A DNA stretch of 33,041 nucleotides from Escherichia phage 500465-2: sequence record NC_049343.1; one strand, written 5' to 3'. A program made the position numbers and the translations under genes. The notes under the pieces are model-generated. The model had not been told where the DNA came from, did no database searches, and was given only the letters and a program-made list of their open reading frames with translations. Positions 22,262 to 25,679 of the stretch are shown here, piece after piece (positions within the stretch are counted from its first letter, which is position 1; the number at the start of each line of letters is the position of its first letter).

Positions 22262-22381
22262 GCAACTTAGACATATTAGCTCAAACTTAAACTGGCAAGT
22301 TTACAGTATAGAATTAAACATAAACGACGGTCCGCTCCGTGTCAGAAGCGGACTTTGTCATCCCTATGTAAGGTTGATTGC

Positions 22382-23404
22382 TTAATACGCATTTAATTTA
22401 AATTTGTATTTGCCTTCTATGTAATGGATAAATTCAATTATGCTTTTTTCTATCGCATCTAATATATGAATATATCCATCCCGATTTAAGGTCCTATCCA
22501 ACTCAAAGTGATGAACTATCCCATGTCTATATTGTATGATTTCAGAAATTCGATTCTCAAGAAAATCAACTGATTTTCCAATTCTTTTTTTCTTATAAAG
22601 AATCGCTCTCACATCTATATCCAGCCACTCTTTATATGCTTTGTTTAGGTGGGTTAAGTTTTGAAAAGTGTAATTTCTTGCAATAACACTTTCTATTGAA
22701 ATATTTCCTTTCTCTATCTCAAGCAGAATATCAAAATCAACTTTTTGCTTATACGATGTTCTTTTTGCTATTGCGAAAGGATCGTACTTTATAAGTATTT
22801 GAAAAGCTCTAGAGAAAAAGTATTCAAACATAGCAACCGCAAAAGGTACTAATCCATTATATATAACTCTACTGGGATCCATACATTGCATGTAATCAAA
22901 GTATTCGGATAAGCCGCCATCTTCCGGTAGGTTTAATTTAATAGAAGGTTCAGGTAAGGCATGTTTAACAGCGGAAATCTCATGATGGACATGATTAAAT
23001 ATTGAAGAAATGCCACGACTGATCGGACTACTAGAATCCTTCCATAGAGGAGCGTACCTATTTTTCCCATAATCACCTATAAGTGTTCCACCAAAAAGAC
23101 TCCTTGCGCCTTTTAGAACATCATTAAGCATTTTTACATCATGCCAACTAGCGCTATATAAATTACGCACATGCAATGCCCATTTATTACCAGATATGTG
23201 TAATTCGTCATTTGAAACAGGATATATATCAGCCGAAACTCCATCTGTAGATTTGAAGTCCGTATCATCAAACCAAGAGTAATTCAACGTTCCTTGGGGC
23301 CATTCCCACAAATGTTTACACCTTTTAAAACCTAAATTTTCAAGGTAATTTTTAAGTTCGTTTCTAGTTGCTTTTTTAGGGTACAGCGTTATATCTCTTC
23401 CCAT
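22382..23404 (-). CDS. Hypothetical protein, AT-rich cargo gene between D and ogr; C-terminal HEPN-like Rx4H motif (candidate abortive-infection/defence protein)
   Basis: 340-aa ORF in a visibly AT-rich block; no resemblance to P2 structural or regulatory proteins that I recognise; motif IIQYRHGIVHHFELDRT near C-terminus. Confidence 0.7.
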   Translation of the reverse strand: MGRDITLYPKKATRNELKNYLENLGFKRCKHLWEWPQGTLNYSWFDDTDFKSTDGVSADIYPVSNDELHISGNKWALHVRNLYSASWHDVKMLNDVLKGARSLFGGTLIGDYGKNRYAPLWKDSSSPISRGISSIFNHVHHEISAVKHALPEPSIKLNLPEDGGLSEYFDYMQCMDPSRVIYNGLVPFAVAMFEYFFSRAFQILIKYDPFAIAKRTSYKQKVDFDILLEIEKGNISIESVIARNYTFQNLTHLNKAYKEWLDIDVRAILYKKKRIGKSVDFLENRISEIIQYRHGIVHHFELDRTLNRDGYIHILDAIEKSIIEFIHYIEGKYKFKLNAY

Positions 23405-23595
23405 GCTTTATTCACCTGATATACAATATTTTAAATTTTAACTATTATGAACGTATGAATTTTCACATTGGATGTATGGAAGTTCAACAACTATTGAAAG
23501 TTCAATTTTCACTCTTCGCACAGAGCGAGCTGTTAGTTGGAATTAGGGATCGTACAATCTAGAATAGCGGCAACACCACGTTAAGGGAGGTCGCT

Positions 23596-23856
23596 ATGTT
23601 CCGTTGTCCGCTTTGTGGCGCATCTGCCCGTATCCGCACAAGTCGTCCGGAAAATGATTCAAACACCGTGCGGCAAAAGTATTACCAGTGTAACAATCTG
23701 GAATGCGGCGTATGCTTCTCAACACTGGAAGCTTTCCATAAATTCACATCGAAACACGCCTCCGGCGTTCACTCTTCAGAAGGTATCCCGTGGCATGAGC
23801 TACCAGCTTCACACAGGGGAAACAATCAGATGAGTTTGCCTTTACCTCAGAATTAA
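23596..23856 (+). CDS. ogr: Ogr/Delta-family zinc-finger late transcription activator
   Basis: MFRCPLCGASARIRTSR...YYQCNNLECGVCFSTLEAF: CxxC...CxxxxC zinc-finger pattern as in P2 Ogr (MFHCPLCQHAAHARTSR...YHQCQNVNCSATF as recalled). Confidence 0.88.
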   Translation: MFRCPLCGASARIRTSRPENDSNTVRQKYYQCNNLECGVCFSTLEAFHKFTSKHASGVHSSEGIPWHELPASHRGNNQMSLPLPQN

Positions 23857-23900
23857 CAAGCAGAATTGCCGGAGTAACAAAAAAGCGATAGATTACGCGC

Positions 23901-24252
23901 GGGTGCCTTTCGGCTGATGGTCGGAGGGAATACCCGAAGGCCAGATGTGGAAAGGCCCCGGAAAACACTTTTGTTTAACCGAGGCCCTAACCGTCTACCC
24001 TAAGCAAGTGAAAGGTTAGCGCCTCTCCGGAAAAGGAGCAAGTGCTATGTCGCAAAAATCGCTTACAGCCATCACGTTCTGCGTGACGGTAATCCTCATC
24101 ATCTGGATGTTGCACGGTTCGCTGTGCGAAATACGGATGAGTTTCTGGGGAGCGGAGTTTGCGGCGTTCTTACAGTGTAAGCAGTAAGGAAACCGCGACG
24201 GGGGAGTAATCCCCCGTCAATCGGTTGCCAGGGTAAGGTCGATAAGGCACCC
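23901..24252 (+). promoter_or_regulatory. hok mRNA-like regulatory envelope: 5' element gggtgcctt (23901-23909) exactly complementary to 3' element aaggcaccc (24244-24252); 3' hairpin 24195-24218
   Basis: Long-range 9-nt perfect complement flanking the toxin ORF, as in the tac/fbi fold-back pairing of hok mRNAs. The antisense sok-like RNA and its promoter were not located. Confidence 0.5.
24047..24187 (+). CDS. hok: Hok/Gef-family type I toxin (46 aa, below the ORF-track cutoff)
   Basis: MSQKSLTAITFCVTVILIIWMLHGSLCEIRMSFWGAEFAAFLQCKQ: N-terminal TM helix, conserved SLCEIR and E.AAF motifs as in HokA-E; RBS AAAGGAG upstream. Confidence 0.8.
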   Translation: MSQKSLTAITFCVTVILIIWMLHGSLCEIRMSFWGAEFAAFLQCKQ

Positions 24253-24385
24253 TATCTCACGGCTCTAAATGCAAAAATTCCATGAAACTGTGGGATTTTT
24301 GCATCACTACTGATACAGATCTGCCCTTCTATATGTCTCACTCTATACCAGCTAATCAATTGACACTTATCAATAAAAAAAAATC

Positions 24386-24448: not shown

Positions 24449-24781
24449 ATGGCATTAATCAAATGTCCTGAATGCCAGAAAGAGGTGAGCGATTCAGCAT
24501 TGTATTGCCCTGCTTGCGGTAAACAAATAAAAAAACTTAAGCGTTCATTTTTTGGAAAGCTCATTAAGTGGATATTTATATTATTTAATATTTTTATGAT
24601 CTATACGCTTTTAGTTGGACTGGGAGGCACTAGTGAAATAATAAATAATGCTACATCCGATGCCGAAAAAGCCGGTGCAGTTATTGGTACAGGCTTAGGT
24701 TTAATTACCATTGGAAGTTTATGGGTTATTGGCGATATCATTATCGGAATTTTAGTATTTCTTACTAAACCAAAAGGATAA
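24449..24781 (+). CDS. Zinc-ribbon membrane protein (N-terminal CPEC...CPAC ribbon, two predicted TM helices)
   Basis: 110-aa ORF with strong RBS (AAAGGAGG); MALIKCPECQKEVSDSALYCPACGKQ followed by hydrophobic helices; AT-rich. Confidence 0.7.
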   Translation: MALIKCPECQKEVSDSALYCPACGKQIKKLKRSFFGKLIKWIFILFNIFMIYTLLVGLGGTSEIINNATSDAEKAGAVIGTGLGLITIGSLWVIGDIIIGILVFLTKPKG

Positions 24782-24785
24782 CAAA

Positions 24786-25679
24786 ATGAAAAATATAATT
24801 TTTTCTATAGGTGCATCATTTATATCAATTAGTGTACTGCCTGTTCACGCAGCAACTGAACATAATAACTTCAATGCAGTACTCCAGTGCCGAGCAATAG
24901 AAAATAATAAAGACAGACTTTCTTGTTACGATAAGTCAATACAACCGACTCGAACGAAAGTTGCTGAAAAATTCGAAAGCAGAGATCAATGCCCTGATGA
25001 GAAAGATGATGACAGACGTTTATCTTGTTATGATCGTTTTTTTTCTCCAACATTTACTCCATCTGTAAACTCAAAATCTAAAACGGAAAAGCCAGTAACA
25101 ACAGAGGCTCAGCAACCAAATCTTTCTGAGATATCTAAATGCCGAGCAGAAAATGATAAAGAAGCCAGACTAAACTGCTACGATAAACTATTCCCACAGG
25201 ATAAAGCTGTTCAAGCTGAATCAAAATTAGAGAAAGCCACAGATGTAGGAAAATGGCACACATCCATTACTACATCGCCAATTGATGATTCGAAAAATGT
25301 AATTTTATCGTTAGAAAGTGATGATTATATCAGAACTCCATTTGGAGAAGCGGTTACTCCCACTCTGTTTATAGCTTGCCGAGAAAAGAAAACCGAAGTA
25401 TTTCTTAGTTGGGATGTATATTTAGGCCTTGAACAAACCAGCATGCTTTATCGTCTTGATAAACAGAAAGCAGTTGAGCGAAACTGGCTAGTATCTACAG
25501 ATACAAAGGCTGTTTTTTATAAAGGTAATGACATTGATTTCATCCGAAAACTAGCCAACTCAAACAAAATGTATACAAAAATAACTCCTTATAATGAGAG
25601 CCCTGTAAGTGCAACTTTCAATTTAAACGGCCTGTCAAACGCGCTAAAACCACTTCAAGCTGCTTGTAACTGGAAATAG
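24786..25679 (+). CDS. Secreted protein of unknown function with three Cys-containing repeats (C...RLSCYD) and a C-terminal domain with a Cys pair
   Basis: 297-aa ORF 4 bp after the zinc-ribbon gene; signal peptide MKNIIFSIGASFISISVLPVHAA; repeats QCRAIENNKDRLSCYDK / QCPDEKDDDRRLSCYDRF / KCRAENDKEARLNCYDKL. Confidence 0.7.
   Translation: MKNIIFSIGASFISISVLPVHAATEHNNFNAVLQCRAIENNKDRLSCYDKSIQPTRTKVAEKFESRDQCPDEKDDDRRLSCYDRFFSPTFTPSVNSKSKTEKPVTTEAQQPNLSEISKCRAENDKEARLNCYDKLFPQDKAVQAESKLEKATDVGKWHTSITTSPIDDSKNVILSLESDDYIRTPFGEAVTPTLFIACREKKTEVFLSWDVYLGLEQTSMLYRLDKQKAVERNWLVSTDTKAVFYKGNDIDFIRKLANSNKMYTKITPYNESPVSATFNLNGLSNALKPLQAACNWK

Follow-up and report, generated by a model that had tools for sequence, protein, structure and literature searches.

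A Hok/Sok-family toxin–antitoxin cassette with an apparent absence of mok downstream of ogr in a P2-like prophage

The hok cassette and its product

The region very probably constitutes a self-contained Hok/Sok-family type I toxin–antitoxin cassette, carried as cargo in the stretch that separates ogr from the right end of its P2-like host prophage. Control appears to be exerted directly at the hok ribosome-binding site (RBS), without mok. The cassette measures about 390-440 bp, and its host prophage is P88/Xuanwuvirus-like and integrated beside flk in E. coli. Throughout, the window denotes the whole 33,041-nt stretch of DNA that we analyzed (NC_049343.1, Escherichia phage 500465-2). The Hok/Sok-type cassette is real yet already catalogued, and its single unusual feature is an apparent absence of mok. 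Our results support the hok/sok-like interpretation offered by an earlier sequence-only reading, including its placement directly after ogr: the last base of ogr (Pfam Ogr_Delta, 52.4 bits) is 23856, which puts the hok ATG, at 24047, 191 nt further downstream. To that interpretation we add putative positions for the hok promoter and a Sok-like antisense gene, as well as covariation that supports the tac/fbi, tac/ucb, ucb/dcb, and RBS-hairpin pairings. We also describe the absence of a mok leader ORF in this subfamily and, from folding models, a predicted refolding switch at the hok RBS itself. As found, the locus carries little weight, since it only adds to the many annotated copies of a widespread Hok cassette; its mok-less wiring is a modest lead. 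If that wiring is true, the subfamily would offer a simple natural test case of an antisense RNA that controls translation purely by refolding, without overlapping the RBS, and would correct the habit of labelling such peptides "MokW-like".

The toxin gene is the following feature.

24047..24187, plus strand: hok, encoding a 46-aa Hok/Gef-family membrane toxin with an ATG start; cluster 72 of the 2026 Hok catalogue

The translation of this ORF is exactly the peptide quoted in the sequence-only reading. Codon comparisons show that the 46-aa Hok/Gef peptide is intact and under purifying selection, with a dN/dS of about 0.2 (0.11-0.27) against nine homologues from loci down to 61% amino-acid identity. 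The peptide matches Pfam PF01848 HOK_GEF at 30.1 bits (gathering score 22), with residues 7-44 on profile positions 5-42 of 42, and PHROG 251 at 82.8 bits. The TM helix that had been read from the letters is borne out by a 17-residue mean hydropathy window that peaks at 2.58 over residues 6-22. The conserved Hok motifs likewise hold: C27, E28, E37, and A39 do not vary when the subfamily is aligned with HokW and R1 Hok. A strong Shine-Dalgarno sequence (SD) of its own, AAGGAG at 24033-24038, lies 8 nt from the hok AUG. The top NCBIfam match is HokA (NF007290 equivalog), at 35.8 bits; because this score is far below the equivalog cut-off of 89, the window Hok is not a HokA orthologue. PGAP names the 100% identical E. 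coli chromosomal copies "Hok/Gef family protein".

The exact 46-aa peptide is entry 1628 in Hok 60%-identity cluster 72 of Escalera-Maurer et al. (bioRxiv 10.1101/2025.08.07.668861), a preprint that also describes hok as enriched in prophages. The constructs made there for arabinose-induced toxicity assays included two cluster members, 72_1621 (the P88 variant, V15A) and 72_1589 (the variant from Stx phages), and only 19_179, 60_1482, and 69_1540 are reported as non-toxic (bioRxiv 10.1101/2025.08.07.668861). Because 72_1621 and 72_1589 are absent from this list of three, they were presumably toxic, the data concerning a plasmid-expressed V15A variant of the window peptide. The preprint treats the coding sequence only, expressly leaving mok, Sok, and mRNA structure for future study, and the RNA anatomy and mok absence of the window locus do not appear in it (bioRxiv 10.1101/2025.08.07.668861).

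Layout and conservation of the hok mRNA

On the hok-sense strand we delineated the following promoter, mRNA, and 3' elements.

23866..23894, plus strand: probable hok promoter, read from sequence (-35 TTGCCG 23866-23871, 17-nt spacer, -10 TAGATT 23889-23894)
23901..24252, plus strand: full-length hok mRNA core, 352 nt from 5' tac to 3' fbi; one conserved block in 19 loci
23901..23915, plus strand: tac, whose partners are fbi (full-length RNA), ucb (3'-trimmed RNA), and 23918-23935 (nascent RNA, metastable hairpin)
24237..24252, plus strand: fbi (fold-back inhibitory), pairing with tac through 15 bp with one bulged U
24197..24218, plus strand: GC-rich 3' hairpin, 9 bp, the expected stop for 3' exonucleolytic trimming
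24269..24302, plus strand: likely hok mRNA terminator, a 15-bp A/U-rich hairpin with a U5 run (-18.1 kcal/mol, z = -5.2)

Comparative alignment shows that the leader and trailer have the layout of a hok mRNA, and that loci from E. coli, Salmonella, and Klebsiella preserve the pairings through compensatory changes. The structure alignment comprises 19 distinct homologous loci. An alignment-based search for related loci gave only six in genomes, of which three probably lie on contaminant contigs, and the set was taken instead from contigs that encode the peptide. Most of the covariation signal comes from just two lineages, the E. coli type and the Salmonella type, and the independent covariation events are therefore few.

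Transcription of hok is predicted to start at about G23901. A TAGATT or TAGAAT hexamer stands at an equal distance from GGGTGCC in 17 of the 19 homologous loci, and when P2-like and Stx-phage contexts are compared, homology starts at TTGCC. The candidate promoter was not flagged by a generic sigma-70 promoter/terminator scan because its 8 of 12 consensus matches fall under the scanner threshold of 9. That scan called neither the hok promoter nor the Sok-like promoter described below; it picked up just the 3' hairpin, read from the wrong strand, and, at 24367, a promoter-like site that is unrelated.

The RNA folding that the sequence-only reading had proposed as a check yields an MFE structure for 23901-24252 that is closed by 5'/3' end-pairing, with an energy of -158.9 kcal/mol (z = -7.7) that none of 100 shuffles equalled. 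The 9-nt complement noticed earlier, GGGTGCCTT at 23901-23909 and AAGGCACCC at 24244-24252, is 100% complementary. A perfect 9-mer inverted repeat anywhere in these 441 nt is no rarity, being expected 0.35 times per dinucleotide shuffle and occurring at least once in 23% of shuffles, but the complement of this very 9-mer within the 72-nt zone after the stop codon occurs in only 0.015% of them. The reading of the 9-nt complement as tac/fbi fold-back pairing is upheld by a predicted pairing probability of 0.98 and by its retention with compensatory changes in the 19 loci, where none of the 13 consensus pairs is lost and three show such changes. In tac, alignment columns 10-12 covary with two partners, fbi columns 360-362 and ucb columns 50-51. 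In the nascent RNA, the first 40 nt are predicted to fold into a tac-containing hairpin of -19.6 kcal/mol.

The GC-rich 3' hairpin is present as had been claimed (GACGGGGGA at 24197-24205 paired with TCCCCCGTC at 24210-24218), although its stem begins at 24197 rather than at 24195, and four stem positions carry compensatory changes among the 19 loci. The likely terminator at 24269..24302 lies outside the conserved cassette, and other loci have a different, canonical terminator in the same place. A comparison with Rfam, also suggested beforehand, was favorable in extent and short in score: RF01794 matched over positions 1-157 of 157 on the hok-sense strand at 23901-24060 (E = 1.3e-10), with 51.9 bits against a gathering score of 59. 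At gathering thresholds Rfam gives zero matches in the whole window, and permissive matches to sR1, CsrC, and a flavivirus stem-loop in the window are due to chance.

The predicted leader switch, the putative antisense RNA and the apparent absence of mok

The textbook hok/sok system requires a small mok leader gene, which in R1 is described as absolutely required. The sequence-only reading had been unable to delineate a mok frame overlapping hok, and rightly so, as an ORF scan finds none there. The positive controls behaved as they should, with an SD-preceded ATG at -57 (GAGG SD) recovered in hokW and R1-type loci. Of the 20 cluster-72 loci that the scan covered, 12 (the window locus and 11 more) yielded no leader ORF, and the remaining eight have only scattered, non-homologous leader ORFs, none of them conserved. 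In the window, an in-frame TAG at 24017-24019 and a TAA at 24001-24003 close two leader frames. We rejected the ORF at 23917..24003, in the mok-equivalent frame, as a mok candidate: it has no SD, its ATG lies within the tac region and is missing in Salmonella-type loci, and its stop falls 30 nt before the hok SD. With no mok leader ORF, control therefore appears to act directly on the hok RBS. We put at about even the chance that cluster 72 is a naturally mok-independent Hok/Sok system in which 3' processing opens the hok RBS and the Sok-like RNA closes it again by releasing the anti-SD strand. The elements that would take part are as follows.

23947..23961, plus strand: ucb (upstream complementary box, GUGGAAAGGCCCCGG), paired with dcb in full-length RNA and with tac in truncated RNA
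23979..23986, plus strand: dcb (CCGAGGCC), with GAGG where R1 and hokW have the mok Shine-Dalgarno and no start codon after it
23981..24025, plus strand: antisense-target hairpin, predicted after 3' truncation only, with a loop (CCUAAGCAA) complementary to the 5' end of the Sok-like RNA
24017..24047, plus strand: RBS hairpin, sequestering the hok SD AAGGAG 24033-24038 and the A of the AUG
24013..24041, minus strand: probable Sok-like promoter (-35 TTGCTC 24041 to 24036, 17-nt spacer, -10 TAACCT 24018 to 24013)
23951..24005, minus strand: predicted Sok-like antitoxin RNA, about 55 nt, with a 17-nt single-stranded 5' tail, a 37-nt hairpin, and UUU

Folding models suggest that truncation swaps the ucb/dcb pairing for a tac/ucb stem plus the target hairpin. 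The predicted probability of pair 23981:24025 in the target hairpin is 0.93 in truncated and 0.00 in full-length RNA, and the cost of opening the target loop falls from 7.4 kcal/mol at full length to 0.9 after truncation. In isolation the target hairpin folds at -18.0 kcal/mol (z = -4.5), with 95% of cells paired across loci. The RBS hairpin, of -13.1 kcal/mol alone and with an outer stem conserved in the 19 loci, has a predicted probability of 0.99 both in full-length RNA and when the Sok-complementary region is held single-stranded, and of 0.05 in truncated RNA. RNAalifold keeps tac/fbi, ucb/dcb, the RBS hairpin, and the 3' hairpin, with double changes in 17 pairs. The leader helices of the truncated state are 93.3% paired across loci, against at most 54% for slid controls, and one locus (L025) carries a three-way compensatory change in columns 56, 87, and 126 that joins ucb, dcb, and the anti-SD strand.

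Opening the window hok RBS is predicted to cost 11.8 kcal/mol at full length, 8.7 when truncated, and 12.5 with the Sok-complementary region single-stranded (13.0 when a slightly different Sok region is held so). The corresponding means over the 19 loci are 13.2, 10.0, and 13.5. The predicted switch amounts to only about 3 kcal/mol and is weak or absent in four of the 19 loci (L013, L025, L019b, and L020a). In the R1-type control, the hok RBS stays closed throughout (17.7, 17.5, and 18.2 kcal/mol) and the mok RBS switches, from 13.7 to 7.2.

In the sequence of events that we propose, the constitutive promoter at 23866-23894 would yield a stable mRNA starting near 23901, which 5'/3' pairing would lock and therefore close to ribosomes and antisense RNA alike. 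Slow 3' trimming back to the hairpin at 24197-24218 would remove fbi, after which tac would re-pair with ucb, and dcb with 24021-24025, to form the antisense-target hairpin. Formation of this hairpin would draw the anti-SD strand away from the RBS hairpin and thereby uncover both the SD and the AUG of hok. An unstable, short Sok-like RNA, made from the opposite strand from about 24005 to 23951, would pair with the target loop and 5' arm and release the anti-SD strand, so that the RBS hairpin shuts again. By analogy with Sok and SokW, the Sok-like/hok duplex would also be cut by RNase III. Once the supply of Sok-like RNA ended, Hok would be synthesized and the inner membrane permeabilized.

We consider it unlikely that the system is instead a canonical three-component one, with the role of mok taken by a 24-codon ORF at 23945..24019 or by a non-canonical start in the -1 frame at 24004..24180. 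In the first case, ribosomes that reach the TAG at 24017-24019 and stop there would unfold the RBS hairpin on its 5' side, so that hok translation is coupled to that of the leader, and the Sok-like RNA, complementary to nearly the whole ORF, would block that translation. The 24-codon ORF does exist in the window, with an AUG after GAAGG (a weak SD) and a stop inside the RBS hairpin, and could serve as a leader ORF in the E. coli lineage. E. albertii-type loci (L011 and L026) share the ATG and an SD-like AAGG ahead of a 79-codon frame that runs through hok, and phage PhiR44_2 has an 87-codon frame. Against this, the ATG at 23945 is missing in all Salmonella and Klebsiella members, where AGAAAGACG replaces AGATGTGG; a 2-nt insertion in the Stx-phage member shifts the frame, which ends after 15 codons; and in the active conformation the ATG is buried in the tac/ucb stem. 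In the window the -1 frame stays open over 58 codons, but it lacks any ATG, GTG, or TTG upstream of +77, and in most loci a stop closes it at -13 or -16, or at +80.

The predicted Sok-like RNA folds at -20.6 kcal/mol (z = -2.4), and its putative ends were transferred from the sokW misc_RNA annotated in AP000422. The search for a minus-strand promoter over the leader, also suggested in advance, drew no call from the generic scan; the candidate was placed by homology to sokW. It occupies the position of the sokW promoter, and its -10 TAACCT and 17-nt spacing are identical to those of sokW of Sp5, the sokW hexamer being deduced from primer YO-421 against the VT2-Sakai sequence. Mutational inactivation of the sokW -10 region unmasks HokW toxicity (Takada 2021, PMC8621323). 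All 19 loci have TAACCT or TATCCT at this position, a conservation of -10 and -35 that is not independent evidence for a promoter because both elements overlap a structured, conserved part of the mRNA. It is conceivable, though in our estimation very unlikely, that the toxin is controlled by mRNA folding and 3' processing alone, and that the apparent Sok promoter is a by-product of conserved mRNA structure. Such a reading can point to the failure of a consensus scan to call the Sok-like promoter, to a -10 that matches three of six consensus positions, and to a predicted Sok-like terminator with no more than UUU after it. The same weak TAACCT nevertheless drives sokW, where its mutation has the effect just described (PMC8621323), the R1 -10 (TATCCT) is also found among these loci, and the design of a 5' tail plus hairpin is preserved. 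This design, together with a target loop that is predicted to open up solely after truncation (7.4 to 0.9 kcal/mol), would be hard to account for without an antisense partner.

Relation to known systems and distribution

The predicted anatomy has much in common with R1 hok/mok/sok, the parB paradigm: a membrane toxin with the LCE motif, tac/fbi pairing, ucb/dcb exchange, a metastable 5' hairpin, a 3' hairpin as trimming stop, and, as a candidate in the window, an antisense gene set within the leader with its -35 lying across from the hok SD. Unlike R1, the window locus is prophage-borne rather than plasmid-borne, has no mok ORF, and encodes a Hok of 28% amino-acid identity; its hok RBS is predicted to open, whereas in the R1-type control it is the mok RBS that switches. 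The hokW-sokW system of the Stx2 prophage (Sp5/933W) is likewise a prophage-borne Hok/Sok with the same cassette layout and with the -10 TAACCT and 17-nt spacing of the putative Sok-like promoter, and it is an experimentally established type I system, RNase III- and Hfq-dependent, that speeds lysis after induction (Takada et al. 2021, PMC8621323). HokW, however, belongs to a different subfamily, with 51 aa and 30% identity to the window Hok, and hokW has an annotated mokW. K-12 HokA is 43% identical and has in common with the window peptide the MxQK start, the WM..SLCE core, and the AAFL.CK tail, but K-12 hokA has a mokA pseudogene and is disrupted by IS150.

The locus is 100% identical in many E. 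coli chromosomes, with a match in 1586 of 5426 complete genomes, and phages P88, P88_4B11, Chuche, and PhiR44_2 carry the cassette at 93-97% identity. Stx2 phages have a second, 46-aa hok cassette at 82% nucleotide identity to the window locus. We ruled out that this Stx-phage match is hokW itself, from the absence of a hokW primer in the related loci and from protein alignment; it is a different 46-aa cassette located elsewhere in those phages. Overall, the cassette occurs in P2-like prophages, Stx phages, tail-fibre regions, a TraI-linked context, and tandem copies.

These contexts also bear on whether the locus has decayed or fallen silent, as several hok loci on the E. coli K-12 chromosome have, and keeps an intact ORF that is never expressed because the required mok was lost. 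The mok start is indeed missing at its R1/hokW position, and inactive hok loci do exist, as the IS150 disruption of K-12 hokA attests. Such decay is nonetheless very unlikely in our judgment: dN/dS stays at about 0.2 down to 61% amino-acid identity, four helices carry compensatory changes, hok keeps its own strong SD, the cassette has spread through all the settings listed above, and the cluster 72 representatives were toxic insofar as their absence from the list of non-toxic constructs indicates. A functional cassette might serve to retain the prophage and its cargo, to help in lysis, or to exclude other phages, alone or in combination. PADLOC has no model that matches Hok or the neighboring cargo genes. 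In Salmonella prophages the D-ogr-hok order recurs with Hok peptides that are only 61-67% identical, and the site 3' of ogr in P2-like prophages is repeatedly occupied by this hok cassette.

Identity of the hok gene and its place in published catalogs

The interpretation of this locus as a hok/sok-like cassette is supported. The 46-aa Hok/Gef ORF claimed in the sequence-only reading is present downstream of ogr (Ogr_Delta, 52.4 bits), which ends at 23856, and its product, MSQKSLTAITFCVTVILIIWMLHGSLCEIRMSFWGAEFAAFLQCKQ, passes the Pfam HOK_GEF cut-off (30.1 bits, cut-off 22). The top NCBIfam match of the peptide is HokA (35.8 bits, far under the equivalog cut-off of 89), and HokA of K-12 shares 43% identity with it. 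The hok frame has a dN/dS of 0.11-0.27.

Features of the cassette
23866-23871 (+), inferred hok promoter -35, TTGCCG, followed by a 17-nt spacer
23889-23894 (+), inferred hok promoter -10, TAGATT
24033-24038 (+), hok SD, AAGGAG, 8 nt from the AUG
24041->24036 (-), predicted Sok-like promoter -35, TTGCTC, followed by 17 nt
24018->24013 (-), predicted Sok-like promoter -10, TAACCT
24047..24187 (+), hok ORF, ATG start
24269-24302, likely transcription terminator in this prophage, a 15-bp hairpin and U5 run

The locus is already annotated and catalogued, and hence is not a new object. PGAP annotates it as a "Hok/Gef family protein" (WP_000078920.1, IHE3034), and the exact peptide is entry 1628 in the alignment of Escalera-Maurer et al. 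(bioRxiv 10.1101/2025.08.07.668861). That preprint reports 32,532 hok loci, an enrichment of hok in prophages, and cluster 72, the 60%-identity subfamily to which our peptide belongs, as a "high-abundance cluster". To assay toxicity, the authors cloned two cluster members, 72_1621 (the window peptide with a V15A difference) and 72_1589 (the variant of Stx phages). Among the 45 constructs tested, only three are named as non-toxic; because cluster 72 is not represented among these exceptions, both of its constructs are probably toxic. As stated there, mok, Sok, and mRNA structure lie outside that analysis.

The Hok peptide itself scores 82.8 bits against PHROG 251, the "MokW-like host killing" family. 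Since the name attaches to Hok, phage records NC_049391, NC_026014, and NC_029120 label hok as Mok-like, which is an annotation misnomer.

RNA architecture and the candidate antisense gene

The perfect 9-nt complement earlier reported between the transcript ends, GGGTGCCTT (23901-23909) and AAGGCACCC (24244-24252), was confirmed. A 9-nt inverted repeat anywhere in 441 nt is expected 0.35 times per shuffle and is thus not unusual alone; the complement of this 5' 9-mer occurs within the 72 nt past the stop codon in only 0.015% of shuffles. Folding from leader to trailer, the check that had been proposed, gave an MFE structure of 23901-24252 that closes on this end-pairing (z = -7.7). The GC-rich 3' hairpin exists as well, with its stem (GACGGGGGA/TCCCCCGTC, 24197-24205 / 24210-24218) starting at 24197 rather than at 24195. 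Rfam returned no match at gathering thresholds; a permissive search aligned all 157 positions of RF01794 ("sok") to 23901-24060 (E = 1.3e-10), so that the expected family match holds over its full length at a score below gathering (51.9 bits, threshold 59). Because this match has the sense orientation of hok and stops at its AUG, the model recognizes the leader that encodes Sok on the opposite strand.

The probable hok promoter, which has 8 consensus matches where our generic promoter scan needs 9 of 12, would place the transcription start at about G23901, the first base of the 5' element tac; the promoter -10 is kept in 17 of 19 loci. In the predicted full-length RNA, tac pairs with the 3' fold-back inhibitory element, fbi, over 15 bp (P = 0.98), the leader box ucb (23954-61) pairs with its complement dcb (23979-86), and a hairpin at 24017-24047 holds the hok SD and AUG (P = 0.99). 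Upon truncation at the 3' hairpin, tac is predicted to pair with ucb instead, dcb pairs with 24021-25 and thereby creates a target hairpin spanning 23981-24025 (P = 0.93), and the probability of the RBS hairpin drops to P = 0.05. Opening the loop that is complementary to the 5' end of the antisense RNA then costs 0.9 kcal/mol, down from 7.4 kcal/mol. In 40-nt nascent transcripts, tac folds into a local hairpin, the counterpart of the classical metastable structure.

An alignment of 19 distinct loci (61-100% amino-acid identity) bears on these structures. RNAalifold retains tac/fbi, ucb/dcb, the outer RBS hairpin, and the 3' hairpin, with both-sided changes at 17 pairs, and pairing in the leader structure of the truncated state reaches 93.3% across loci versus 30-54% for slid controls. 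Columns 10-12 of tac covary with fbi columns 360-362 and also with ucb columns 50-51, the signature expected of alternative pairing, and a linked change in locus L025 at ucb column 56, dcb column 87, and anti-SD column 126 fits a three-step exchange. Independent covariation events are few, because most double changes separate just two lineages.

The minus-strand promoter that had been sought was located as a candidate through comparison with sokW. [quoted passage not shown] 2021, PMC8621323). When primer YO-421 is set against the VT2-Sakai sequence, the sokW -10 is deduced to be TAACCT, the same hexamer at the same 17-nt spacing as in the window. With the ends of the annotated sokW transferred to the window, a Sok-like RNA is predicted to run from about 24005 to 23951 on the minus strand; it would fold (-20.6 kcal/mol) into a free 17-nt 5' tail and a 37-nt hairpin followed by UUU.

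The apparently mok-less leader and the predicted RBS switch

No mok could be delineated in the sequence-only reading, and our ORF scan of the window bears this out. In the R1-type and hokW controls, the same scan finds, 57 nt before hok and after GAGG, an ATG that is read through hok. By contrast, about 15 nt bearing this ATG in hokW and R1 are missing from the window, where no start codon opens the mok-equivalent frame before +77 and two frames are closed by TAA 24001-03 and TAG 24017-19. Of 20 subfamily loci, 12 (the window and 11 others) lack a leader-starting ORF that reaches the hok SD, and the ORFs of the remainder are scattered and non-homologous.

In both L006 (VT2-Sakai, 715-927) and L005 (an IncFII R1-type plasmid), the mok ATG precedes the hok ATG by exactly 57 nt, which puts mok in the hok frame, so that 'Mok' would be Hok extended N-terminally. 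The R1 coordinates of Le Rhun 2022 (mok start 116-118, hok start 174-176) give a 58-nt spacing and therefore a different frame.

Predicted RBS opening energies (kcal/mol) for full-length RNA / truncated RNA / truncated RNA with the Sok region single-stranded
R1-type control, hok RBS: 17.7 / 17.5 / 18.2
R1-type control, mok RBS: 13.7 full length, 7.2 truncated
hokW control, hok RBS: 10.7 / 8.2 / 8.0
hokW control, mok RBS: 16.5 full length, 8.7 truncated
Window, hok RBS: 11.8 / 8.7 / 12.5 (third value 13.0 with a slightly different Sok region)
Subfamily mean (19 loci), hok RBS: 13.2 / 10.0 / 13.5

Unlike the R1-type control, in which the hok RBS remains closed and truncation opens the mok RBS, the window subfamily is predicted to open the hok RBS itself on truncation and to re-close it when the Sok-complementary region is single-stranded. 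The main alternative is that a 24-codon ORF at 23945..24019 acts instead of mok; it terminates within the RBS hairpin. Neither the Salmonella nor the Klebsiella members have its ATG, and in the Stx member its frame is shifted. Direct, mok-independent switching of the hok RBS is the most likely reading, to which we give an even chance. The predicted switch is modest, and it is weak or absent in 4 of the 19 loci, so this reading stops short of established. The absence of mok together with the predicted rewiring constitutes a modest lead.

By analogy, loss of the Sok-like RNA supply would release Hok, whether the cassette were lost or silenced or an infecting phage shut off host transcription. 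Only 10 nt, with no terminator, separate the end of ogr from the hok -35, so transcription of ogr could continue into the cassette.

Distribution and genomic neighborhood

The window derives from an E. coli P2-like prophage adjoining flk. Many complete E. coli chromosomes contain the 421-nt locus at 100% identity, and a match occurs in 1586 of 5426 complete genomes. Phages P88, P88_4B11, Chuche, and PhiR44_2 carry a 93-97% identical cassette, likewise after D and ogr and labelled "MokW-like host killing", and the D-ogr-hok order recurs in Salmonella P2-like prophages (L017, L023, L024) whose Hok is only 61-67% identical. Many Stx2 phages carry a 46-aa hok cassette 82% identical to the window locus. 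This cassette is not hokW: HokW has 51 aa and shares just 30% identity, and these loci lack the hokW primer sequence.

Subfamily hosts comprise E. coli, Shigella, E. albertii, Salmonella, and Klebsiella oxytoca. The cassette adjoins lambdoid tail-fibre genes in L015, lies near a TraI relaxase in L021, and occurs in tandem in L019 and L020. Between contexts, homology spans the hok promoter -35 to the fbi element, so this is a mobile cassette of about 390 bp. The Salmonella tandem copies (hok at 1501-1641 and 1991-2131 in L019, and at 1501-1641 and 1995-2135 in L020) lie about 490 bp apart, both complete with their own tac and fbi. The L015 copy (Salmonella, ~1300-1500) keeps hok, the SD hairpin, and fbi intact, with unrelated sequence in place of the 5' end (tac and the promoter -10 included); it may be deregulated or dead. 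This enterobacterial hok also appears in three GTDB contigs, from a Planococcaceae MAG (L008), Vagococcus sp. (L009), and Xanthomonas pisi (L012), with peptide identities of 100%, 100%, and 74% and E. coli-type flanks kept in the first two; assembly contamination is the most likely source.

An AT-rich island (~22300-23560; 31-39% GC versus ~52% in the flanks) lies between tail gene D and ogr, which adjoin directly in P88 and PhiR44_2. It has no megablast match among a 50,697-record phage collection. Its 340-aa ORF (22382-23404, minus strand) gave no match in PADLOC or PHROG searches and a weak Pfam match to HEPN_RiboL-PSP (22.5 bits, under the 28.4 cut-off), and the island is possibly a defence-type moron. 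Between hok and host flk are two AT-rich cargo genes, 24449-24781 (+) and 24786-25679 (+), which encode a zinc-ribbon membrane protein with weak DrpB similarity (phrog_6586) and a VasI/TagO-like protein (PF11319, 89.6 bits; phrog_1848), respectively; P88-like phages carry both.
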